This document shows positions 29,676-64,000 of a DNA stretch of 64,000 nt, in pieces. Location: contig JBNLAN010000016.1 in assembly GCA_050302175.1 (NCBI GenBank), positions 6,957 to 70,956 of the forward strand, read 5' to 3'. Below the pieces are notes generated by a model. That model was not told where the DNA came from and searched no databases. It saw nothing but the letters and a program-made list of their open reading frames with translations. How positions within the stretch are numbered: position 1 is the stretch's first letter; every line of letters starts with the position of its first letter. This stretch comes from Mariprofundaceae bacterium. GTDB lineage: Bacteria; Pseudomonadota; Zetaproteobacteria; Mariprofundales; Mariprofundaceae. The translations under genes were made by a program, and so were the position numbers.

Positions 29676-29752
29676 TGGCGCTCCCTGAGCGATTCGAACG
29701 CCCGGCCTTCTGATTCGTAGTCAGATGCTCTATCCAGCTGAGCTAAGGGAGC
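29676..29752 (-). tRNA. tRNA-Arg (anticodon ACG)
   Basis: Hand-folded cloverleaf: acceptor GCTCCCT/AGGGAGC, anticodon loop CTACGAA, T-loop TTCGAAT, encoded CCA. Close to E. coli tRNA-Arg(ACG). Confidence 0.9.
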
Positions 29753-30262: not shown

Positions 30263-30355
30263 TGGCGGAGAGAGAGGGATTCGAACCCTCGATACCAGTA
30301 TAATTGGTATAACACCTTAGCAGGGTGCCGCTTTCGACCACTCAGCCATCTCTCC
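30263..30355 (-). tRNA. tRNA-Ser (anticodon GCT)
   Basis: GGAGAGA acceptor, anticodon loop CTGCTAA, long variable arm (ATACCA/TGGTAT), T-loop TTCGAAT, encoded CCA. Confidence 0.9.
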
Positions 30356-30440: not shown

Positions 30441-30528
30441 TGGCGGAAGGGGTGGGATTTGAACCCACGAATGGTTTCCCATTGCCGGTTTTCAAGACCG
30501 GTGCATTCAGCCGCTCTGCCACCCTTCC
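30441..30528 (-). tRNA. tRNA-Ser (anticodon TGA)
   Basis: GGAAGGG acceptor, anticodon loop CTTGAAA, long variable arm, T-loop TTCAAAT, encoded CCA. Confidence 0.9.
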
Positions 30529-34362: not shown

Positions 34363-34439
<77 letters not shown>

Positions 34440-38068: not shown

Positions 38069-38145
38069 TGGTCGGGACGAGAGGATTCGAACCTCCGACC
38101 ACCAGTCCCCCAGACTGGTGCGCTACCAGGCTGCGCTACGTCCCG
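38069..38145 (-). tRNA. tRNA-Pro (anticodon GGG)
   Basis: CGGGACG/CGTCCCG acceptor, anticodon loop CTGGGGG, T-loop TTCGAAT, encoded CCA. Confidence 0.9.
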
Positions 38146-55563: not shown

Positions 55564-56411
55564 ACCGCTCGGCACTAATGCAAAGCGCCAGGGCGCATCC
55601 TCTGCTGTGGGCTGGCGGTGCGATTGTTGGCACTGTGGCATTGCTGGCACTACTCGCCCCTTTTATTTCCCCCTACAACCCAACTGATCTCAATGTGAAG
55701 CACATCCTGCTGCCGCCTTCGCTCGAGCATCTCTGCGGCACCGACACACTGGGCCGCGATATCTTCTCACGCATGCTCTACGGCGCACGCGTATCGCTGG
55801 CGGTAGGTTTTGTGGCTGTAGGCATCGCCATCCTCATTGGTATTGCGCTGGGGGCGACAGCCGGCTTCTACGGCAACCGCATCGATACGCTCATTATGCG
55901 CACCACCGACATGGTGCTCTGCTTCCCCACCTTCTTCCTGATTCTGGCTGTGATTGCTTTTCTGGAACCCTCGATCTGGAACATCATGATCGTGATCGGG
56001 TTGACCTCGTGGATGGGTGTTGCGCGGCTGGTGCGCGCCGAATTCCTGAGCCTCAGGGAGCGTGAGTTCGTGCTGGCAGCGAAGAGCCTTGGGGTCTCCT
56101 CCATCTCCATCATGCTGCGCTACATGCTGCCCAACGCCATGGGGCCTATTCTGGTCTCCGCAGTGCTGGGCGTGGCAGGAGCCGTACTGGTTGAGTCTGG
56201 CCTGTCGTTTCTGGGGCTGGGCGTGCAGCCGCCCGACCCATCGTGGGGCAACATGCTAACCGAGGGCAAGGACAATCTTGATATCGCTTGGTGGATGTCG
56301 CTCTATCCCGGGCTCGCCATCCTGATCACGGTACTGGGATACAACCTGCTAGGCGAAGGTCTGCGCGATCTGCTCGATCCAAAAATGACCGCGAAATCGC
56401 GCACAAACTAA
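55560..56411 (+). CDS. ABC transporter permease, DppC/OppC type
   Basis: 283 aa with the LCGTDTLGRDIFSRMLYGARVSL block and an EAA loop (FVLAAKSLGVS). GTGA overlap with the upstream permease. Confidence 0.9.
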   Translation: MNRSALMQSARAHPLLWAGGAIVGTVALLALLAPFISPYNPTDLNVKHILLPPSLEHLCGTDTLGRDIFSRMLYGARVSLAVGFVAVGIAILIGIALGATAGFYGNRIDTLIMRTTDMVLCFPTFFLILAVIAFLEPSIWNIMIVIGLTSWMGVARLVRAEFLSLREREFVLAAKSLGVSSISIMLRYMLPNAMGPILVSAVLGVAGAVLVESGLSFLGLGVQPPDPSWGNMLTEGKDNLDIAWWMSLYPGLAILITVLGYNLLGEGLRDLLDPKMTAKSRTN

Positions 56412-56965
56412 AATTCCAGCGCATCTCCAGTTGCAAGATCGCTCTCTTCGGCCAGCAATATCTCCTGCAACAGCGCCATCACCAGCATACGATTATCTTC
56501 CTGCTTGCGCGCATCGACCGTAAAAATCGGTATATCACCTGAATCAAGTTCTGCAGCCAGCTTCTCCAGAGGCATGGCATTCGGTAAATCCTGCTTGGTA
56601 GCTCCGATCACAACCGGAAAGTCTGCAATATCCTTCCATACCTGAATCATCTCTTTGGCTTCGCTGACAGCCCTGTCGGCAACAGTATCGACAAGCAACA
56701 CGCCGCCCAAAGCCCCTTTGGAAAGTATCTTCCACATAAAGGCAAAACGGGACTGCCCCGGCGTACCGAACAGGTGTACGGATAGCTCGTCATCGACCTT
56801 CAGAATACCGAAATCCATTCCGACAGTGGTCATGGCCTTGAACTGGGACAGCTCGCCCGTGGTGGGCACATCCTTGCCCGAAAACTGCTCATCGCTGACA
56901 TGCTGAATCAGCGTTGTCTTACCTGAGCCGAATGGGCCGGAGATGATAATTTTTGCAATTGCCAT
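56408..56965 (-). CDS. small Ras-like GTPase of the MglA/CvnD (COG2229, ATP/GTP-binding protein) type
   Basis: 185 aa with G1 GPFGSGKT, switch I TTVGMDFG, G3 LFGTPGQ (Thr in place of Asp) and G4 ATKQD. GGGAG lies upstream of the ATG. The 3' end overlaps the convergent permease gene by 4 nt. Confidence 0.85.
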   Translation of the reverse strand: MAIAKIIISGPFGSGKTTLIQHVSDEQFSGKDVPTTGELSQFKAMTTVGMDFGILKVDDELSVHLFGTPGQSRFAFMWKILSKGALGGVLLVDTVADRAVSEAKEMIQVWKDIADFPVVIGATKQDLPNAMPLEKLAAELDSGDIPIFTVDARKQEDNRMLVMALLQEILLAEESDLATGDALEF

Positions 56966-57003
56966 GGACCTGCTCCCTAGTTCCTATCCCTGCAAAACCA
57001 CTA

Positions 57004-57618
57004 TCATGCAACAGCTCGCAGTCGTGCCAGAATGCGTGAGGCAAAACCGACAGGACGACTGACCCTGGCGACACTTCTCTGTGCAACCGGCAAAAAATAG
57101 CCTAGGCAGTAACATGTGATCACGATGCGCAGCTTGCGAAGCATCATGTCCGCATCCGTGATGTCAAGGTATGAACCCAGGTTGGCGCCACGCTCAGCAA
57201 GGCCCATCTGATACAGCACCTGGTATTCATGGAAATCTTTCGGGTTCAGGCGGAAAATTATCGCCGCCTTCAGGCGCACTGGTGGCAGCTTGGAGAAACA
57301 TTGTCGAAACACTGCCGCACGCACGTGATGCAGATGCAATCCCGCTAAAGCCCGGGTAAACACCATCTTGGCTTCCATTGGCACAACAATTTTCGGTTTC
57401 GATGGATTCCAGCGAAAACGTAACACCGGCTTCTCAATCACCTGCCTCAGCAACGCAACGGCTTCGCCCTCCCCTTCCAGCATACCGTGCTCAATGCGAA
57501 GGTGGGCATTCCAATCTTTACCTTCAAAATTTATTTCCCAACATTGTCCGCTAGCCAACAATTTACGCAACAAATCGAGGTGTTTCAGTTCATGACTCGC
57601 CTGTTCCTGCTTCGGCAT
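57004..57618 (-). CDS. hypothetical protein co-transcribed with the GTPase (possibly DUF4388-like N-terminus)
   Basis: 204 aa. ATG 57618 is preceded by GAGGAG. It lies 38 nt upstream of the GTPase gene. The block LDLLRKLLASGQCWEINFEGKDWNAHLRIEHGML loosely resembles DUF4388, but the assignment is weak. Confidence 0.55.
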   Translation of the reverse strand: MPKQEQASHELKHLDLLRKLLASGQCWEINFEGKDWNAHLRIEHGMLEGEGEAVALLRQVIEKPVLRFRWNPSKPKIVVPMEAKMVFTRALAGLHLHHVRAAVFRQCFSKLPPVRLKAAIIFRLNPKDFHEYQVLYQMGLAERGANLGSYLDITDADMMLRKLRIVITCYCLGYFLPVAQRSVARVSRPVGFASRILARLRAVA

Positions 57619-57874
57619 CTATAACTCCTCACCTGTTTCAAGGCCCATCACAACAACCCCCAGCCTGAATATGCCAGCCGCAAGCAAGCGACTGTTCGGA
57701 AGCGATTACGTACCCTAAGCACATGATAAGGCATTTGCCCCTCACCCGAATTTTCTCGGATATCGCAAGTCCGGCTCTTCAGAATACATAGCATTTTTCA
57801 CGCCAACACTAGACTGGAGATGATGGCACCCTCATGACATCGACAGGCACCGGCACATCCATTAACGTGCCGAA

Positions 57875-59449
57875 ATGGATGGGGATATCAGAATCATCGG
57901 CTCGATTTCCGGAAAACAGGAAGCGGCATCCTGTATTGCCGCACTACTTACTGCATCCGAGGAAAGCCTGACACATGGCGGAGATTTTACTGGCAAGCCG
58001 ATCACCAGCATCAAAGCCTCAGCCACCCACATTCTTAAACTGCATATGGGGGGAGGATTCTCTGACGAAAAGATTGCCACTTCGTGGGTAATGCACAATC
58101 TTGAAAAAAATCGCCAGAGCGGCCTTTACCATCCTGATAAAACATGGTTTCTCATCGAGCAGGATCAAACCTGGCATGCGGGCAACATTACCCCGCGCAT
58201 GCAACCGTTGCATGTACTAATCGAGCAGTGCGGGCCAGCGCAGGCCATGAGCTGGCTCATCAAAGTTTGCAAAATCTATATCTCACACGCAGCCAACTTT
58301 CAGGATCGTCTCGATGAAGGTCTCTCTAATTTCGGATTAGCCGATGATAACCGCCTCTATTATCTCGATGACGACTTCTATACATGGGATCACTTCCTCT
58401 CATTCACGCACATGCTTGCCGGCTGGTTCCGGCACTATTCCGGTAGCTGGCTCGATGAAACAAAGGCGCGGGAACTTGGCAGACAACTATCCTCCATAAT
58501 CCACGAGGCATTCGACAATACTCCCGGCATCGATTCGGTCCATGTTGTCTATGAACACCTCGGTTCACAATTCCTGCATAACCAAGCACAGGTATGTGCC
58601 GAGCATTGTCGCCAGGAACTTATGGAAGCAAGCCACAATGTGCAACCCGAATCGTCACATAAGTCGGACGCGCTGCATCCCCATACAACGGAAGTCAGCA
58701 CATGGCTGAACGAAGATGAGCCAATCGGTGTACTCGCTGATGTGCACGCGAATCTTCCAGCATTGCGTGCGGTGCTGGAAGAACTCGATCGACAAAATAT
58801 CCAAAGAATCATGGTTGCCGGCGATATTGTCGGTTACGGCCCTCATCCGGCCGAATGCATTGAGTTATTAAGCGAACGCGGCGCAGCTTGCCTGCGTGGC
58901 AATCACGACCATATTGTCGGCACGGGCGTGCCTGTAGCAAGTATGCAGGGAAGCAGGCTCATCGCCGCAGAATGGACCATCAACCATCTTGATGAACATT
59001 ATAAACGTTGGCTAACTGCGTTACCGCTTCAATGGCGTTTCCCACCATGGATTGCTATGCATGGGGCACCCATGGACCCGACCTTCTTCAATGCTTATAT
59101 CTACGACCGCACGGCCGAACGCAACCTGCAGTGGTTACAGGCCAACCAGTTCGACTTCTGCCTGCACGGGCACTCTCACTTGCAGGGTATCTACTGGCTT
59201 AAACAAGGTAACATTCGCTACGGCAAAGGGGCACATGACGCCATCCTGCATAAAACTTCACTCATTTGTCCCGGGTCTGTGGGGCAACCGCGAGGAGGCA
59301 TTCCGGGGGCGGAATTTGCAATTCTTCGCCCAACCTCCCACAAAATACAAATGAGAATCATCGATTATGATCTTGATGAAACCATCCGGGACATGCGACG
59401 GCATCGGCTCCCCGGACAACTTATGCAACGGTTGCGTAACGGCATATAA
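57875..59449 (+). CDS. two-domain protein: unassigned (kinase-fold-like?) N-terminal domain + metallophosphoesterase
   Basis: The C-terminal half carries all five calcineurin-like phosphoesterase motifs (DVHAN, GDIVGYG, GNHDH, MHGAP, GHSH). The N-terminal ~280 aa are unassigned. Confidence 0.8.
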   Translation: MDGDIRIIGSISGKQEAASCIAALLTASEESLTHGGDFTGKPITSIKASATHILKLHMGGGFSDEKIATSWVMHNLEKNRQSGLYHPDKTWFLIEQDQTWHAGNITPRMQPLHVLIEQCGPAQAMSWLIKVCKIYISHAANFQDRLDEGLSNFGLADDNRLYYLDDDFYTWDHFLSFTHMLAGWFRHYSGSWLDETKARELGRQLSSIIHEAFDNTPGIDSVHVVYEHLGSQFLHNQAQVCAEHCRQELMEASHNVQPESSHKSDALHPHTTEVSTWLNEDEPIGVLADVHANLPALRAVLEELDRQNIQRIMVAGDIVGYGPHPAECIELLSERGAACLRGNHDHIVGTGVPVASMQGSRLIAAEWTINHLDEHYKRWLTALPLQWRFPPWIAMHGAPMDPTFFNAYIYDRTAERNLQWLQANQFDFCLHGHSHLQGIYWLKQGNIRYGKGAHDAILHKTSLICPGSVGQPRGGIPGAEFAILRPTSHKIQMRIIDYDLDETIRDMRRHRLPGQLMQRLRNGI

Positions 59450-59460
59450 TCTCCCCTCAA

Positions 59461-59488
59461 AACGAAAAAGGCGGCCCAAGGCCGCCTT
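59461..59488 (-). terminator. rho-independent terminator (minus strand; hairpin shared with convergent plus-strand gene)
   Basis: aaggcggcc-caa-ggccgcctt. On the minus strand it is followed by TTTTTCGTTTT. Confidence 0.65.
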
Positions 59489-59511
59489 CCCCGCTATCAC
59501 ACCCCCTTTGC

Positions 59512-59919
59512 TCAGGGGCAAAATGGAACCACTTCAACCAGGGCGCGACGCATCGCGGTCCAGCCCATGCCAAGATTGGCCTTTCTGGAAGTGACCATCA
59601 CAACCAGCGCATTGGGCTTATCTTTTGCGATCGCCATAAAATGGTAGGTCGCCTCTGTCGACATCTGCACTTCCTGAATGCTGTTCTTTACTTCTACCCC
59701 TCGCTGGGCACTTAAAAGTTTCTCAACAGTTGATACGGTCTTGCCACGGAACATATCAACCGCTGCAGCTGCCACCGCATCAATGTAGGATTGTGTAAAA
59801 TATGGAACGGTGTGATACGCTCCCAGCATCAACCCTGAATCGAGATCAACGACCGAGCAGGCCAAGCCTCCATCCACATCATCAACCAACGTCTTTAATA
59901 CCTCATTTAGTGTGCTCAT
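59512..59919 (-). CDS. Roadblock/LC7-like protein (paralog 3)
   Basis: 135 aa. VDGGLACSVVDLDSGLMLGA ... ALVVMVTSRKANLGMG fits the Roadblock alpha-beta-alpha pattern. 17-nt overlap with the upstream paralog. Confidence 0.65.
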   Translation of the reverse strand: MSTLNEVLKTLVDDVDGGLACSVVDLDSGLMLGAYHTVPYFTQSYIDAVAAAAVDMFRGKTVSTVEKLLSAQRGVEVKNSIQEVQMSTEATYHFMAIAKDKPNALVVMVTSRKANLGMGWTAMRRALVEVVPFCP

Positions 59920-60403
59920 GCGCGCTCCTGTTCTTCATTTCGATCATTTCATTTTTGACTCGCTCTAACAATGCTTCCGGGTTATTCAGAATATCGAGAC
60001 CCCTGATCTCCTCCCCAAAGCGTTTGGTTGCCCTGTTAATCGAATTTGCAGTCCGGCGAGCCGCGGTTAATACCAGGCCAACGTTGATTTCCGCCTTACC
60101 GATCACAGTAAGAATTAGCCCTCCGGCATGTAGAAGTACAAGGGTGCTGGATTCAGCCTGACTGATCACATTGTCGACCAGCGCCTTGCCAGCCTGCCCG
60201 GCCAGTGCATCGGCAAGCGATAACAACGATGAACTCATGGCGGCAATAGAGTCCGGCTCGATACTTGCGTCGGTGGAAGCACTGGTAACCAGCAAGCCAT
60301 CCTGTGAGGACAGCACAGCCCCGGCAATCATATCCGACTCTGTTACCAAATTACTTAATTCTCGTTCGCAGATTGAAACATCCTGATCGGTGAGCTTAAT
60401 CAT
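59903..60403 (-). CDS. Roadblock/LC7 domain protein (paralog 2) with C-terminal helical extension
   Basis: 166 aa. IAGAVLSSQDGLLVTSAS...PDSIAAMSSSLLSLADAL...GGLILTVIGKAEINVGLV is a classic Roadblock/MglB-type pattern. Confidence 0.78.
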   Translation of the reverse strand: MIKLTDQDVSICERELSNLVTESDMIAGAVLSSQDGLLVTSASTDASIEPDSIAAMSSSLLSLADALAGQAGKALVDNVISQAESSTLVLLHAGGLILTVIGKAEINVGLVLTAARRTANSINRATKRFGEEIRGLDILNNPEALLERVKNEMIEMKNRSAHEHTK

Positions 60404-60473
60404 GTGCCATACCCCTCTGCACTTCCAGTTGATAAAGCTTCTTTAGCAAACCTTGTGCCGAACACGCATTGTC

Positions 60474-60836
60474 TCATATTAGCACGGCCAGTTTGCCACA
60501 CACATCACTAAGAAGCTGTGCGGCCTTTGAGGGCACTCTGACAGTAGCCACCAGCAAAATAAAGTGGCTTTCACCTGCATCGAACCCCCTGAGCAACAAG
60601 GCATGCGGCCCCCCTTTCGGAACAATGCACACGATTCCTAACCCGGCCTCCATTCCTGAGGCATTGGCTATCTGTTCGCCGCGACGAACCCATTCGGGCA
60701 ATAGCGCCGCCAGCTCAAACTGTTCGGCGGTACCGGATTGACACACAGCAAGGCCCTCCGTGTTAATAATGGACATCCAGACAAAGTCATTCGTCCGACG
60801 CGTCTCTTCCAGAAACTGCTCGACTTTCAACTCCAT
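60474..60836 (-). CDS. Roadblock/LC7-like protein (paralog 1)
   Basis: 120 aa. FVWMSIINTEGLAVCQSG...ELAALLPEW...HFILLVATVRVP matches the length and hydrophobic periodicity of the Roadblock fold. Confidence 0.6.
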   Translation of the reverse strand: MELKVEQFLEETRRTNDFVWMSIINTEGLAVCQSGTAEQFELAALLPEWVRRGEQIANASGMEAGLGIVCIVPKGGPHALLLRGFDAGESHFILLVATVRVPSKAAQLLSDVCGKLAVLI

Positions 60837-60964: not shown

Positions 60965-62053
60965 TTGGTACCGATGGAGCTTGAACAACTGAAAGAGATG
61001 GCCGAGCTTCATCCTGGCAATCCGCGTATCCTCAGAGAGTATGCCGATGCCTTGATGGGAGCAGGGCATATCATACACTCTCGTCGCATCATTCAGCGTT
61101 TGTTCCGCCGTCTGACCAACACCGCCCGTACGGAAGAGGCGCATGAACTCATGGAGACTTATGGCAAGTGGGTTTGCGGTGAGGAGGAGACGCTACGCAG
61201 CCTCGGCGATGGCCCTTTCCTGTTGTTAAATGATAAGCAGGCGCAAGATGGATTACTCAAACGCAGCCGGAGAAAAAGACTCAAGGAGGGTGAAGTTCTG
61301 TTCCGGGCCGGCGAGCCTTCAGATGCAATGTACCTGGTGCTTGAAGGTGAACTTGCCATTTTCCTGTCATCCGGACACCAGACATCGGGCCCCACTCTGC
61401 TCAATCTGGTCAGACGAGGGGACTTGGTTGGAATGAGTGTACTGATTAAGGATCGTGCCGTACGTACCGCCGATGTGTTTGCCAACAGCAATGCCCTGGT
61501 ACTTCAGTTCAATGCGCAACAGGCGCGCGAGGCATTGGCACGATACCCTGAACTGGAATCCCTGATTGAAGAAGAAGGCACCTTGCGAGAGAGAATCACG
61601 GGTCTGGGGCATAACCCGGCATTCCTTCGTATTCCGCTCTCGGAGCGAATTGTCATCGCCGAACAAACGACAGTGATGCGAATTCACACCCCCCAGATAC
61701 TTAAAGAGGAGAATCAGGTGTGTCCGTTTGCCGCGGTTATCCTCTCAGGTGAAGTCGAGTGTTACTTCCAGCTGGGAGGTAAGCAGCATTACTCCGGAAG
61801 CCTTTATTCCGGTTCCTTGATCGGGGCCGAAAAAGTACTTGGTAACCCCCCAACTCCCAACCAGCTCGTTGCCAAAACCGGCACATCATTGCTGACCATC
61901 CCCAGGGATGTGCTCGAAGATATCGCCGACGCATCACCGGAATTTTTACAGACAGCGAAAGAGATTGCCGAACAACAAGCCTTCCAGGACAACGAAACGG
62001 TTCGCGTCCTCCATAAGCAACAAGCCTCAAGGGATAGTAAAGATGACGGATGA
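60965..62053 (+). CDS. helical N-terminal domain + two cyclic-nucleotide-binding domains
   Basis: TTG 60965 lies 5 nt after AGGAG. The first cNMP barrel carries GEVLFRAGEPSDAMYLVLEGEL...GDLVGMSVLIKDRAVRTADV. The second barrel is more degenerate. Confidence 0.78.
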   Translation: MVPMELEQLKEMAELHPGNPRILREYADALMGAGHIIHSRRIIQRLFRRLTNTARTEEAHELMETYGKWVCGEEETLRSLGDGPFLLLNDKQAQDGLLKRSRRKRLKEGEVLFRAGEPSDAMYLVLEGELAIFLSSGHQTSGPTLLNLVRRGDLVGMSVLIKDRAVRTADVFANSNALVLQFNAQQAREALARYPELESLIEEEGTLRERITGLGHNPAFLRIPLSERIVIAEQTTVMRIHTPQILKEENQVCPFAAVILSGEVECYFQLGGKQHYSGSLYSGSLIGAEKVLGNPPTPNQLVAKTGTSLLTIPRDVLEDIADASPEFLQTAKEIAEQQAFQDNETVRVLHKQQASRDSKDDG

Positions 62054-62948
62054 AGAGTTGCATCAGCAGGGTAAACACCGGGAAATGGTCCGTGAGCATA
62101 TTGAAATGCTTATGCCAATGATGAGCTCGCTACATACCAAATTCTATACGCACCTTTTCCTGATCGATCCTGCGCAAGCGACGGTATTCAATGGTAGTGC
62201 CGTCGCTCTGAACAGAAAGTTCATCAATATGATGGCGACATTCAGAAGCATCCGGCATCTCGAAAAGATGCATACAACGATTGAACACCTGAGCCAAAGG
62301 CATGTGACATACGGACTCCAGCCAGAACACATCGAGCCCTTCGGAAAGGCTTTAATCGCAGCGCTTTCGGAACAACTCGGCGATCAATTCACCGACGAAC
62401 TTCGTACGGCATGGATTAGCACTTACGATCAGGTCACGTCCATTATGAAAAGTTCCATACGGCAACACCCTGAGTGGCTGGCAAGCCAACCGGAAAAAGA
62501 GACCATGCATCTCGATGCCGGACTGCTCGAGGCGATCGGAGATACGGAGATCGTGCGTAATGTACATACCCGTTTCTATAACGAGATTTTCGAGGACGAA
62601 TGGCTGGGGCAATTCTTCTACGGCAAAAGCAAAGAGGCCCTGATCAGCAAGCAAACCAATTTTATGGTAGCCTGTTTCGGCGGTCCGAACCACTATCGCG
62701 GTGAGCCGCCGGCGCTGGCGCATATGCATATGCTGATAACTGAAGAGATGGCCCTCGAGCGTGAAAAGATTCTTCGCAAAGCCATTCTTGCTGAAGGCCT
62801 GGATGAAGAAATCGCCAAGCGCTGGCTGAAGGTCGACCGTTCGTTCTGGCCTGCCATTAACAAACAGGGAATCAATGAATGCGTAACAAAATGTTTTGGT
62901 CAGGCGCCAGCCACGGCAAAAAAGCCGACGAACTATCGTCCGCGTTAA
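62043..62948 (+). CDS. tandem globin: N-terminal 3/3 single-domain globin fused to C-terminal 2/2 truncated haemoglobin (group I-like)
   Basis: ATG 62043 overlaps the upstream gene by 11 nt. Globin 1 carries FYTHLF...LSQRHVTYGLQPEHIEPFGKALIAAL. Globin 2 carries RFYNEIFEDEWLGQFF...FGGPNHYRG...AHMHMLIT. Confidence 0.8.
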   Translation: MTDEELHQQGKHREMVREHIEMLMPMMSSLHTKFYTHLFLIDPAQATVFNGSAVALNRKFINMMATFRSIRHLEKMHTTIEHLSQRHVTYGLQPEHIEPFGKALIAALSEQLGDQFTDELRTAWISTYDQVTSIMKSSIRQHPEWLASQPEKETMHLDAGLLEAIGDTEIVRNVHTRFYNEIFEDEWLGQFFYGKSKEALISKQTNFMVACFGGPNHYRGEPPALAHMHMLITEEMALEREKILRKAILAEGLDEEIAKRWLKVDRSFWPAINKQGINECVTKCFGQAPATAKKPTNYRPR

Positions 62949-62976: not shown

Positions 62977-63426
62977 ATGATGCAGAAAGCGCTGCGACAG
63001 GCAGAGCTCGCCGCTGAATCGGGCGAAGTTCCGGTCGGTGCCGTGCTGATACTGAACGACGGGCGTGAATTCGCTGCACATAATGCCCCGATCTCCCTGC
63101 ACGATGCATCGGCACACGCCGAAATGCGCGTCATCCGCGCTGCCTGTACGGCAGTCCAAAACTATCGCCTTACCGGTGCAACGCTTTATGTCACGCTGGA
63201 GCCCTGTACGATGTGCGCCGGGCTGATCGTGCACGCACGTATCCGGCGTGTCGTCTACGGTGCTGCAGACCCCAAAGCGGGAGCTGTGGAGTCGTTATCG
63301 CAAGTGCTCCACGATACTCGTTTGAATCACCAACCCGAGGTCTTGGGCGGTATCATGGCGGAAGAGTGCAGCAGTTTACTAAAATCTTTCTTTCGCAAAC
63401 GCAGACATGCTCCAGCACCGGAATGA
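62977..63426 (+). CDS. tadA: tRNA adenosine(34) deaminase
   Basis: CDA fold with HAEMRVIRAA and TLEPCTMCAG zinc motifs. GTG 62959 is an alternative start. Confidence 0.9.
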   Translation: MMQKALRQAELAAESGEVPVGAVLILNDGREFAAHNAPISLHDASAHAEMRVIRAACTAVQNYRLTGATLYVTLEPCTMCAGLIVHARIRRVVYGAADPKAGAVESLSQVLHDTRLNHQPEVLGGIMAEECSSLLKSFFRKRRHAPAPE

Positions 63427-63502: not shown

Positions 63503-64000
63503 ATGCTTTATCAGTCGGTCAAACAGTTCAGCACTAAGAAGGTGCTACAGGCCTCGCCGGACAAAGAGCTCTCCGCTGCCATTGCAATAATGAACAGCGA
63601 CAAGGTATCCAGCATCATTATTTGCGAAAATCATAAGCCGGTTGGAATCGTAACAACACGGGATATTCCCGGCATTCTGCTCAGAAACAGGGATGCCCTG
63701 CACCGCCCCATATCCGAAAGCATGACGCAGCCGCTTATCACAATCGATGCCGGTTACTCTCTGATGGAGGCACTGGACATAATGACCAGTAAAGGCATCC
63801 GTCATATTCCGATTGTTGATAAAAAGGGGAAACTCGAAGCATTAATTACCGAAACCGATATTATGGATGCTGTCGGCACGACCGACCTGATGCGCAACCA
63901 GAGTACCGCCGACATCATGATCACCGATGTCGTCACAATCATGCCCGATACGCAACTGCTCGCCGCAATCGAAACGATCGCCGATAAGAGAATTGGCAGC
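63503..64000 (+). CDS. CBS-domain protein, 3'-truncated by window edge
   Basis: ATG 63503 lies 5 nt after GAAGGAG. The frame is open to nt 64000 and absent from the ORF track because it has no stop. Repeated CBS pattern present (IGIVTTRDI, HIPIVDKKGKLEALITETDI). Confidence 0.75.
   Translation, partial: MLYQSVKQFSTKKVLQASPDKELSAAIAIMNSDKVSSIIICENHKPVGIVTTRDIPGILLRNRDALHRPISESMTQPLITIDAGYSLMEALDIMTSKGIRHIPIVDKKGKLEALITETDIMDAVGTTDLMRNQSTADIMITDVVTIMPDTQLLAAIETIADKRIGS

Follow-up and report, generated by a model that had tools for sequence, protein, structure and literature searches.

A 64,000-nucleotide stretch of contig JBNLAN010000016.1 (GCA_050302175.1, Mariprofundaceae bacterium), referred to here as the window, encodes at 62043-62948 a genuine, conserved and cytoplasmic di-globin, in which a 3/3 globin is followed on the same polypeptide by a 2/2 truncated haemoglobin. 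The protein belongs to a conserved and uncharacterised family of iron-oxidising and methane-oxidising bacteria. To our knowledge, 3/3 (M, S) and 2/2 (T) globins are classified as separate proteins, whose only fusion partners are non-globin modules or copies of themselves. In the PDB, no natural chain with both a 3/3 and a 2/2 fold was found. The full-text literature searched, which did not include the surveys of Hade et al. 2017 (IUBMB Life 69:479) and Vinogradov et al. 2013 (BBA 1834:1789), held no description of such a fusion, which is absence of evidence only. The initial annotation, to which no characterised 3/3-2/2 tandem was known, agrees with both the PDB and the searchable literature. 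A conserved fusion of the two folds would allow two haem chemistries, kept by selection on one chain, to be compared within a single protein.

Two globin folds on one chain

The di-globin frame was a single unbroken ORF on the + strand, both in the ORF list and in the raw sequence, which bears out the earlier statement that neither a stop nor a frameshift separates the halves. The start was assigned to the ATG at 62043, which is backed by homologues and carries AGGGA 8 nt on its 5' side, and the stop is TAA (62946-62948). Residues 33-134 matched Pfam Globin (PF00042; E = 1.5e-11, 45.2 bits, cut-off 22), and residues 161-260 matched Bac_globin (PF01152; E = 5.4e-15, 56.1 bits, cut-off 21). Both domains thus lie above their gathering thresholds on one chain, as had been claimed, and neither half failed to score in the HMM check that the initial annotation had proposed. 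The peptide strings quoted there were all recovered in the di-globin sequence. His87 (codon 62301-62303) and His227 (codon 62721-62723) are both encoded by CAT. The AF2 model of the whole di-globin had a pLDDT of 91.5 and a pTM of 0.76. Coordinates of all features are collected in the table.

Table. Features of the di-globin gene and of its neighbourhood (positions in the window)
Feature	Position	Strand	Description
Di-globin gene	62043..62948	+	301 aa + stop; 3/3 and 2/2 globin domains with linker and Cys tail
N-terminal 3/3 globin domain (M-family, HGbI/HGbRL-like)	62043..62465	+	residues 1-141; Pfam, PDB, Foldseek, conservation
Inter-domain linker	62466..62522	+	residues 142-160; low identity, indels, lower model confidence
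C-terminal 2/2 domain (probable group I, HbN-like)	62523..62840	+	residues 161-266; Pfam, HbN alignment, Foldseek
C-terminal extension	62841..62945	+	residues 267-301; conserved, holds Cys motif
cNMP-binding gene	60974..62053	+	359 aa; helical/TPR-like N-terminus and two cNMP_binding domains, no output domain
120-aa protein, possibly Roadblock-like	60474..60836	-	candidate partner; co-occurs in 10 loci
RB166, Roadblock/LC7	59903..60403	-	166 aa; candidate partner; near di-globin in 11 loci
RB135, Roadblock/LC7-fold	59512..59919	-	135 aa; candidate partner; near di-globin in 14 loci
Metallophos protein	57875..59449	+	524 aa; N-terminal ~280 aa without family, C-terminal calcineurin-like metallophosphoesterase
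204-aa protein	57004..57618	-	orthologues beside GTPase in 9 di-globin loci
MglA-like small Ras-superfamily GTPase	56408..56965	-	185 aa; candidate partner; near di-globin in 14 loci

Key residues of the N-terminal half are F34 (B9), Y35 (B10), F49 (CD1), L56 (E7), K59 (E10) and F60 (E11), together with R86-H87 (F7-F8) and Y90 at the proximal side. R86-H87 was invariant in all 119 family members and F49 was present in 110 of them; F34, F49, K59, F60 and Y90 were each conserved in >90%. Position B10 was Tyr in 92 and Phe in 27 of the 119 members, with Tyr in the window protein, and E7 was Leu in 114 of 119 and is neither Gln nor His in the window protein. From these residues, the N-terminal half is predicted to retain what is needed for haem binding. 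In the PDB sequence search it matched HGbI (3s1i, E = 1.1e-14) and HGbRL (3wfw, E = 2.6e-9). The AF2 model, with helices A-C and E-H and no D helix, predicts a 3-on-3 helical fold; it was superposed by Foldseek on HGbI 3s1i with a TMt of 0.85 and an rmsd of 1.8 Å, and also matched neuroglobin and FHP globin domains. The HGbI/HGbRL subgroup is marked by the absence of helix D, Tyr B10 and Gln E7 (PMC4476040), of which the first two are present and the third is replaced by Leu, so that the N-terminal half is related to this subgroup and is not a strict member of it. K59 aligned with Lys52 (E10) of HGbRL (PDB sequence alignment), a haem ligand in the closed form of that protein (PMC4476040). Against the NCBIfam flavohaemoprotein model PRK13289, 58 bits were obtained (cut-off 432), covering positions 5-135 of 399. 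The initial assignment to Vitreoscilla/flavohaemoglobin-type globins, based on Tyr B10 and an R-H..Y-G motif, was thus upheld, with HGbI/HGbRL as the closest subgroup. A homologue search with the N-terminal half alone gave 8 word candidates and no matches.

In the C-terminal half, the key residues are G166-D167, H175, F178-Y179 (B9-B10), F191-F192 (CD1), L200 (E7), Q204 (E11), F207, M208 (E15), G213-G214, H227 (F8) and H229. The half aligned without gaps to HbN of M. tuberculosis, Y179, L200, Q204, M208 and H227 corresponding to HbN residues 33, 54, 58, 62 and 81. F178-Y179, F192, Q204 and H227, equivalent to HbN residues 32-33, 46, 58 and 81, were invariant or almost so, and H227 was found in 119/119 members as part of a proximal His-Met-His-Met motif that is itself invariant in the family. 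The EF Gly-Gly is present in the window protein as G213-G214; the AB motif is G166-D167 there and G-G in 114 of the 119 members. Every significant match in the PDB sequence search was a group I protein. The AF2 model of this half (helices 161-165, 168-183, 188-192, 197-211, 223-226, 234-250 and 255-266) predicts a 2-on-2 fold in which helix A is short and helix F has a single turn, and was superposed by Foldseek on 1dlw (TMt 0.93, rmsd 1.2 Å) and on HbN (rmsd 1.1 Å). Residues and HbN alignment together support the earlier reading of a group I truncated-haemoglobin pattern with an F-Y pair and a proximal His, and the half would likewise keep the residues needed for haem binding.

Linker, cysteine tail and family

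Mean pairwise identity within the family was 47% for the N domain, 17% for the linker, 62% for the C domain and 60% for the tail. The flexible linker is rich in indels across the family and was modelled with a confidence of 73-85. In the tail, the motif E279-C280-V-x-K-C284-x-G286-Q287-x-P289 is encoded at 62877-62909; C280, G286 and Q287 were invariant, and C284 and P289 were present in >90% of members. Stand-alone relatives of the 2/2 domain have kept the first tail Cys and not the second. The tail was modelled with a pLDDT of 84-93 and with beta-bridges from residues 273 and 290 to residues 230 and 232, beside the proximal His, and the Cys-x3-Cys tail is accordingly modelled as packing onto the proximal side of the 2/2 domain. 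The tail did not figure in the initial annotation.

The search of other genomes suggested by the initial annotation returned more than 115 homologue clusters of the same architecture (identity 39-76%), hosted only by Zetaproteobacteria/Mariprofundaceae and Methyloprofundus/Methylococcaceae MAGs. Both Pfam domains were present in 111 of the 120 homologue clusters listed (lengths 203-336 aa), and a precomputed Pfam Globin match was absent in 7 listed homologues. Family lengths cluster tightly at 289-312 aa. Among the neighbourhood ORFs matching the family domain profiles, 69 of 84 comprised both halves and the tail, the others being end-truncated fragments or extra single-domain globin genes. 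Pairwise identities of the N- and C-terminal halves were correlated (Mantel r = 0.85, a value reached in none of 999 permutations), and the two halves have co-evolved as one unit since a single fusion.

Since four contigs, among them those of two NCBI assemblies and of one Logan SRA assembly, encode the identical 301-aa protein, and orthologues share the two-domain architecture and its narrow length range, a sequencing or assembly error that joined two adjacent genes in the linker was rejected as practically negligible. No supporting evidence for such an artefact was found.

Gene neighbourhood

The cNMP-binding ORF directly upstream (Pfam cNMP_binding in two stretches, E = 1e-24) ends at 62053 and overlaps the start of the di-globin gene by 11 nt. 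The coupling of the two genes noted previously is clade-specific: orthologues of the cNMP gene immediately precede the di-globin at 6 loci, all of the Zetaproteobacteria-type clade (at least 56% identity). A terminator scan gave no terminator-like site on the + strand between the two genes. As the counts of the promoter and terminator scans were at or below the shuffled expectation, with no + strand terminator, an operon structure is only suggested. The upstream neighbour was co-directional with the di-globin in 53 of 58 cases. In six methanotroph-type loci, the gene directly upstream encodes a protein of 398-516 aa without a Pfam domain, which showed no relation to the cNMP protein, the Roadblock proteins and the 204-aa protein. 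Five tRNAs were detected with Rfam within the window, none of them near the di-globin gene.

Further upstream in the window, genes for a GTPase, a metallophosphoesterase and Roadblock-type proteins were identified. The 185-aa GTPase matched Pfam Arf, Ras, Roc and ATP_bind_1 and, as best PDB match, MglA (3t12, E = 2.1e-9). The 524-aa protein matched Pfam Metallophos and Metallophos_2 (PDB 3rqz, E = 3.6e-29). The AF2 model of RB135 (pLDDT 90.7) matched Roadblock 3kye, MglC 7ct3 and MglB, and its source names read 'Roadblock/LC7/MglB family'; RB166 matched Pfam Robl_LC7 with 30.4 bits (cut-off 23) and, weakly, NCBIfam MglB. The 120-aa protein had no Pfam match and was collinear with the RB166 family over 110 columns in a weak hhalign comparison (E = 3.5e-3, probability 9%). 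No family match was obtained for the 204-aa protein in Pfam and NCBIfam searches. A Ras-like GTPase and Roadblock/LC7-fold regulators are hence encoded together, as in an MglA/MglB-type pair.

Across ~80 non-redundant loci, the most frequent neighbours of the di-globin were Metallophos orthologues (within 10 kb in 19 loci, spanning di-globin identities of 39-76%), followed by the GTPase (14) and the Roadblock proteins (14, 11 and 10). The GTPase/Roadblock/metallophosphoesterase module was present, with shuffled gene order, in 14 of 36 long loci. About 60% of the long-flank loci lack a GTPase/Roadblock module, and several loci, L011, L016 and L030 among them, show no evident signalling gene nearby, so that the family has no one fixed partner. 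A Pfam census of the 118 immediately adjacent ORFs was led by HDOD (9), HD (8, being the HD domain of the HDOD proteins), cNMP_binding (6), AAA_16 (5) and Metallophos (4).

Proposed function and comparison with known systems

The di-globin is proposed, with moderate confidence, to be a stand-alone two-haem gas or redox sensor that signals to co-encoded proteins by protein-protein contact. The idea of a dual-affinity sensor had been raised in the initial annotation, and a sensor would be favoured over a detoxifier because the neighbourhood is rich in signalling genes. Judging from its residues, each chain would carry two haems of differing chemistry. The 2/2 haem (Tyr B10/Gln E11) would bind O2 or NO tightly, and the 3/3 haem would sit in an apolar pocket formed by Leu E7, Phe E11 and Tyr or Phe B10, with the conserved Lys E10. 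This Lys might ligate the iron in a closed state, in the manner of HGbRL, and so provide a ligand- or redox-driven conformational switch. Without an enzymatic output domain, the signal would be passed to co-encoded signalling proteins: in the clade of the window to the overlapping cNMP-binding protein, and family-wide probably to the MglA-like GTPase, the Roadblock/MglB-like proteins and the metallophosphoesterase. The behaviour of microaerophiles would thereby be tuned at oxic-anoxic interfaces. A pocket of the HbN type is, classically, that of an NO dioxygenase, which speaks against the sensor reading. A precedent exists in HGbRL, a putative sensor whose globin, of the same type, is covalently fused to Roadblock/LC7.

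More speculatively, and with low confidence, the di-globin could be the gas-sensing input of an MglA-type GTPase switch. The two haems and a redox-active or metal-binding CxxxC motif would set a narrow O2 (or O2/NO) window, and polarity, motility or stalk behaviour would be controlled via the Roadblock/MglB-like proteins, the metallophosphoesterase and, in this clade, the cNMP-binding protein, so that Fe-oxidisers and methanotrophs could hold their place in opposing gradients. The repeated adjacency of an MglA-like GTPase and Roadblock proteins echoes the globin-Roadblock fusion of HGbRL and suggests a testable path by which the sensing of O2/NO would feed into small-GTPase signalling; the hosts concerned, microaerophilic Fe-oxidisers and marine methanotrophs, are ecologically important and genetically hard to study. 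If true, a haem-to-small-GTPase signalling route would be described in bacteria for the first time, and the di-globin would be the first heterotypic haemoglobin of two folds in nature to have a defined role. Because the protein is small and soluble, questions of haem and partner are open to direct test in E. coli.

Doubtful, in comparison with the sensor, is a role as NO dioxygenase or N-oxide detoxifier without a flavin domain, in which O2 bound to the HbN-like 2/2 haem would oxidise NO, and electrons of a cellular reductase would reach the ferric haem by way of the 3/3 haem (perhaps hexacoordinate through Lys and His), the CxxxC motif or both, in place of the FNR-like domain of flavohaemoglobin. 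The C-terminal half has the exact HbN set of Tyr B10, Leu E7, Gln E11 and His F8, but the tunnel-gating Phe E15 of HbN is replaced by Met. The N-terminal half scores on the globin part of an NO-inducible flavohaemoprotein model, but a reductase domain is absent and no recurrent reductase or N-oxide genes were found among the 118 adjacent ORFs. At individual loci, a Methyloprofundus gene with NarG, an MFS transporter, an HPP/CBS protein and CCP_MauG (MauG-type peroxidase) nearby and a Fer2-FAD-NAD-trHb fusion (ferredoxin-reductase-trHb) adjoining the di-globin (L072) favour redox or N-oxide chemistry; such a fusion also adjoins a stand-alone relative of the 2/2 domain (L090), and AhpC/Redoxin genes adjoin the di-globin in 2 loci. 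The adjacent genes are mostly of signalling type (HDOD, cNMP_binding, Metallophos/GTPase/Roadblock), however, and not of nor/nir/hmp type.

The confinement of the family to organisms of O2-limited gradients, the proposal that globins and hemerythrins serve as O2 stores in Fe-oxidisers (PMC3770913) and the loci without signalling neighbours would suit an O2 buffer, in which two haems of unequal affinity store O2 for terminal oxidases or, in methanotrophs, methane monooxygenase without any signalling. Such a buffer is rather improbable: at E7 and E11 the N domain offers no polar side chain to stabilise O2, and it carries Phe B10 in more than a fifth of the members, features that suit O2 storage poorly; the shuffled yet persistent GTPase/Roadblock linkage is unexpected for a storage protein; and no sign of the high expression that a buffer needs was seen.

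A single working haem half, with the 3/3 domain as a haem-free or permanently hexacoordinate scaffold (RsbR-type) that dimerises or docks the truncated haemoglobin, is very unlikely. The lower conservation of the N-terminal half, its unusually apolar distal pocket and the homologues in which the Pfam Globin match is missing point in this direction, but non-haem globins like RsbR no longer carry His F8 (PMC4476040), whereas the proximal R86-H87 is retained throughout the di-globin family, along with the other N-terminal pocket residues listed above.

Among known systems, flavohaemoglobin (Hmp/FHP) and the globin-coupled sensors share with the di-globin an N-terminal 3/3 globin followed by a second module. 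Both labels were rejected because the defining second modules are absent. Unlike flavohaemoglobin, the di-globin has only 301 aa and no FAD/NAD reductase domain (no FAD_binding or NAD_binding match in Pfam), and its PRK13289 score is far below the cut-off. Unlike the globin-coupled sensors, it has no MCP, GGDEF or kinase transmitter and no Protoglobin match, its globin falls outside the protoglobin-like S lineage, and its second module is a globin; the di-globin may nevertheless act in a sensor-like manner.

The C-terminal half has in common with HbN and further truncated haemoglobins of group I (1idr, 1dlw, 3aq5, 6bme) the 2/2 fold (rmsd 1.1-1.2 Å), Tyr B10, Phe CD1, Leu E7, Gln E11, His F8 and the EF Gly-Gly. 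It differs from them in the lack of a pre-A motif, in Met instead of Phe at E15, in the invariant His-Met-His-Met, in the conserved Cys extension of ~35 aa, in the covalently attached 3/3 globin and in an identity of only ~25-28%. HGbI (3s1i/3ubc) is the best sequence and structure match of the N-terminal half, and its Tyr29 (B10) and Lys53 (E10) have equivalents there; unlike the di-globin, HGbI is a single-domain protein with Gln50 (E7), where the di-globin has Leu56, Phe E11 and a second globin.

HGbRL of Methylacidiphilum infernorum (3wfw) is a 3/3 globin fused to Roadblock/LC7 and a putative sensor (PMC4476040). Tyr B10, the missing D helix, the R-H..Y-G motif and a Lys E10 at the position of Lys52 are common to HGbRL and the N-terminal half, as is an association with Roadblock/LC7, covalent in HGbRL and through neighbouring genes in the di-globin. 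The C-terminal partner of the di-globin is a second globin and not Roadblock, E7 is Leu and not Gln, and the model has separate E and F helices, whereas the HGbRL crystal dimer has a swapped, fused E-F helix.

Multi-unit globins, described as homotypic tandem repeats of 3/3 or 2/2 units (Hade et al. 2017, as cited in PMC7475203), likewise have several globin units per chain, and many such proteins were returned by the profile search. Among its best 150 representatives, the heterotypic M-T arrangement was restricted to the di-globin family, the sole addition being a fragmentary 752-aa T-M-M-M protein (P0255). Multi-unit globins repeat one fold (M-M... or T-T...), whereas the di-globin mixes two.

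Reading frame, homologues and authenticity of the di-globin

The initial annotation had described a 3/3 globin and a 2/2 truncated haemoglobin (trHb) on one polypeptide, here termed the di-globin, with no stop or frameshift between the halves. Both claims were borne out: in the ORF list and the raw sequence the frame was open from ATG 62043 to TAA 62946–62948 (plus strand, 301 aa), and Pfam scored PF00042 (Globin, residues 33–134, 45.2 bits, E = 1.5e-11) and PF01152 (Bac_globin, residues 161–260, 56.1 bits, E = 5.4e-15) on the single chain, each well over its curated cut-off. All peptide strings quoted earlier were found in the protein. The mechanical ORF list extended the frame upstream to 61908; a Met at the column of 62043 was the start in 99 of 119 aligned homologues, and AGGGA is located 8 nt upstream of this ATG. 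The NCBIfam model for NO-inducible flavohaemoprotein was matched in its globin part alone (58 bits, cut-off 432).

A homologue search over 5.8 billion proteins yielded 124 clusters, 120 of them listed. Among the listed clusters, nearly all homologues were 289–312 aa long with 39–76% identity to the window protein, and the architecture, sought in other genomes as had been proposed, was present with both Pfam domains in 111/120. Named sources were Zetaproteobacteria/Mariprofundaceae, Methyloprofundus, Methylococcaceae and other Gammaproteobacteria MAGs; in public annotation the entries bore generic names ("globin domain-containing protein" and "hypothetical protein") or carried both COG names. 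The protein was found 100% identical on four contigs, including GCA_050304675.1 and GCA_050305755.1 (NCBI) and the Logan assembly of SRR36185838. Given this identity in separate assemblies and an architecture common to the homologue clusters, an artefactual join of the halves has a practically negligible probability.

The two globin units and the cysteine tail

Mean identity across the family was 47% for the N-half (3/3 globin, residues 1–141), 17% for the linker (residues 142–160) and 62% for the C-half (2/2 globin, residues 161–266). The last 35 residues, with 60% mean identity, were conserved like the 2/2 domain and carry the motif E279-C280-V-x-K-C284-x-G286-Q287-x-P289, with C280, G286 and Q287 unchanged in all 119 homologues and C284 in 118 of them; this tail had been missing from the initial description.

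The AlphaFold2 model (117-sequence alignment; pLDDT 91.5, pTM 0.76) comprised an N-half with helices A–C and E–H, separate E and F helices and no D helix, and a C-half in which the A helix is short, the F helix makes a single turn and helices G and H complete the 2/2 fold. The tail was placed with pLDDT 84–93, with beta-bridges from 273 and 290 to 230 and 232, directly past the proximal His, and is predicted to pack on the 2/2 domain. With Foldseek, the N-half matched HGbI, Hell's Gate globin I (TMt 0.85, rmsd 1.8 Å), as well as neuroglobin and flavohaemoglobin globin domains, and the C-half matched Paramecium trHb (TMt 0.93, rmsd 1.2 Å) and HbN, the M. tuberculosis trHb (rmsd 1.1 Å). The only PDB chains covering both halves were engineered di-alpha haemoglobins at an rmsd of ~17 Å, and the PDB therefore holds no natural precedent.

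In PDB sequence searches, the N-half was nearest to HGbI (3s1i, E = 1.1e-14) and, second, to the globin part of HGbRL, a Methylacidiphilum infernorum protein with a Roadblock/LC7 domain (3wfw, E = 2.6e-9); neuroglobin, Vitreoscilla Hb and flavohaemoglobins came next. Among 119 homologues, F34 (B9), F49 (CD1), K59, F60, R86, H87 (F8) and Y90 were invariant or >90% conserved, B10 was Tyr in 92 and Phe in 27, and E7 was Leu in 114. In gapless parts of the alignments, Y35 falls on HGbI Tyr29 (B10), L56 on HGbI Gln50 (E7) and K59 on HGbRL Lys52 (E10), which is a haem ligand in the closed structure (PMC4476040). These alignments place the N-half, at the sequence level, in the D-helix-less bacterial group around HGbI/HGbRL; unlike the Tyr B10/Gln E7 signature of that subgroup, the window protein has Leu at E7, and its distal pocket (Leu E7, Phe E11) is predicted to be unusually apolar.

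Significant PDB sequence matches of the C-half were group I trHbs without exception. A gapless alignment over 93 residues with HbN set F178-Y179 on Phe32-Tyr33 (B9-B10), F192 on Phe46 (CD1), L200 on Leu54 (E7), Q204 on Gln58 (E11), M208 on Phe62 (E15) and H227 on His81 (F8). In the family these residues vary little or not at all, and the same holds for H175, G213-G214 and the H227-M-H229-M motif. One conserved chain carries both globin folds intact, each with its full haem-binding signature.

The family profile, run against 1.84 billion representatives, gave 137 matches at E ≤ 1e-30, and the best 147 representatives were split using separate HMMs for N-half, C-half and tail. About 21 of these had the order 3/3–2/2, with or without tail (190–333 aa), and many were homotypic multi-unit globins. 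Among the best ~150, the sole other heterotypic protein was the fragmentary, probably eukaryotic P0255 (752 aa; one 2/2 unit followed by three 3/3 units), with a truncated N-terminal 2/2 unit and a hydrophobic C-terminal end. Stand-alone 2/2 globins of 134–217 aa also bear the C-terminal extension, with the first Cys of the di-globin tail (..IVKxSxx[ED]C..), and lack its second Cys and G-Q-x-P; the shared features indicate that the C-half derives from this trHb subfamily. Its members (P0187, P0208, P0223–P0268; L093:9938-10498, L094:9950-10498) are group I-like, with an A-H-x-H-M proximal motif, a ~35-aa extension and a nearly universal single Cys, and no solved structure exceeded ~28% identity to them. 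Pairwise identities of the two halves were strongly correlated (Mantel r 0.85, reached in 0/999 permutations), which argues for a single fusion followed by joint evolution.

Gene neighbourhood in the window and across the family

Genes of the di-globin region and tRNA genes in the window
Feature	Position	Strand	Remark
MglA-like GTPase	56408-56965	-	MglA 3t12 closest, E 2.1e-9
204-aa unknown protein	57004-57618	-	between GTPase and metallophosphoesterase
524-aa protein, unknown N-domain + metallophosphoesterase	57875-59449	+	
Three small proteins (135, 166, 120 aa)	59512-60836	-	Roadblock or Roadblock-like (120-aa protein: possibly)
cNMP-binding protein	60974-62053	+	overlaps di-globin start
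Di-globin	62043-62948	+	between cNMP-binding gene and tadA
tadA	62977-63426	+	3' of di-globin
CBS/PAS hybrid histidine kinase	from 63503 (63503-64000 in window)	+	past tadA, same strand as di-globin; kinase/response regulator, CBS + multi-PAS, 913 aa, exceeds window end
Five tRNA genes (RF00005, Rfam)	29679-29752, 30266-30355, 30444-30528, 34366-34439, 38072-38145	-	

The 166-aa neighbour (RB166) matched Robl_LC7 in Pfam, and the model of the 135-aa neighbour (RB135; pLDDT 90.7) matched a Streptomyces Roadblock/LC7 protein, MglC and MglB. The cNMP-binding protein resembles a PKA-R-like tandem because it has no output domain. In its first domain, judged by eye, the phosphate-binding cassette retains R-T-A and has G-M at the place of the conserved G-E; both are missing from the second. 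As judged from these motifs, the protein may be non-canonical in cAMP or cGMP binding.

Ninety-four loci were compared (88 once six duplicate contigs were removed), 80 of which had a di-globin-family ORF; 69 of 84 neighbourhood ORFs matching the domain profiles contained N-half, C-half and tail together, and the remainder were contig-end fragments or extra single-domain globin genes. Unbiased ORF clustering ranked metallophosphoesterase first (19 loci), followed by GTPase (14), RB135 (14), RB166 (11), the 120-aa protein (10) and the 204-aa protein (9). These neighbours spanned the whole 39–76% di-globin identity range in an order shuffled from locus to locus, and the GTPase/Roadblock module was present in 14 of the 36 loci whose flanks reach 8 kb or more. 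The RB135 family by itself has >730 clusters, including Marinobacter and Isoalcanivorax; the GTPase module therefore reaches far beyond the di-globin, an optional addition to it, and the compact set of genes at 56408-60836 has the look of a GTPase signalling cassette that is widespread and uncharacterised.

The coupling to a cNMP-binding protein claimed earlier is matched in the window by an overlap of the two genes (60974-62053 against 62043) and does not extend to the family, since this gene was directly upstream in only six loci, of the ≥56%-identity clade. Its position is taken in a methanotroph-type clade by a co-directional HDOD/HD-domain protein (293 aa; nine loci: L029 (178-1056), L036, L042, L043, L047, L048, L051, L056, L060). 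A Pfam census of 118 ORFs ≤600 bp from di-globins was headed by HDOD, HD (the HD domain of the same HDOD proteins), cNMP_binding, AAA_16 and Metallophos, and the upstream neighbour was co-directional in 53/58 cases.

In six methanotroph-type loci (including L010:6423-7973, L014:6792-7988, L035 and L037), a 398–516-aa family lies between metallophosphoesterase gene and di-globin; it showed no Pfam domain and, by hhalign, no relation to the cNMP protein or Roadblock families. Fusions of 536–554 aa that combine a 2Fe-2S ferredoxin, an FAD/NAD reductase and a trHb (Fer2, FAD_binding_6, NAD_binding_1 and Bac_globin), by domain content putative "flavo-ferredoxin-trHbs", adjoin the di-globin at L072:1370-2977 and, at L090:728-2389, a stand-alone close relative of the di-globin's 2/2 domain (L090:207-650). 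Downstream of the Methyloprofundus di-globin (L010, 8902-16879), an HPP/CBS membrane protein, a MauG-type di-haem peroxidase, an MFS transporter and NarG are encoded, an N-oxide/peroxide context absent from the window.

Proposed function and relation to known globins

Domain analysis found no catalytic or transmitter domain in the di-globin, and its gene was persistently linked to signalling genes in the compared loci. We give roughly even credence to a gas or redox sensor. The HbN-like haem would bind O2 or NO, stabilised by Tyr B10/Gln E11, and the HGbRL-like haem, in its apolar pocket with the invariant Lys E10, could be a switch of coordination or redox state. The conformational change would be sensed by the overlapping cNMP-binding protein in the window's clade and by the Roadblock/MglA-like/phosphoesterase module in the wider family. 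A Rosetta-stone-type argument for the latter link comes from HGbRL, whose globin, of the N-half's kind, is fused to a Roadblock domain.

An NO dioxygenase without reductase, with electrons relayed by the 3/3 haem or the Cys pair, is unlikely. The HbN-type pocket of the C-half, the N-oxide genes close to the Methyloprofundus copy and the adjoining ferredoxin-reductase-trHb fusions speak for it; neither reductases nor N-oxide enzymes recurred among the 118 ORFs up to 600 bp from di-globins. Somewhat less probable again is an O2 buffer, and a haem-less N-half serving as scaffold is very improbable.

The label flavohaemoglobin was ruled out, as the reductase module is absent, and so was globin-coupled sensor, there being no S-type globin and no transmitter. 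The reviews consulted cover chimeric globins and homotypic multi-unit globins and describe no 3/3–2/2 fusion; an earlier survey-table entry may exist. The di-globin would be unexpected to a globin specialist, yet is not paradigm-breaking, and its possible tie to small-GTPase signalling in microaerophiles is the more interesting prospect. Among known systems, its N-half is a relative of HGbI/HGbRL and its C-half a relative of group I trHbs.
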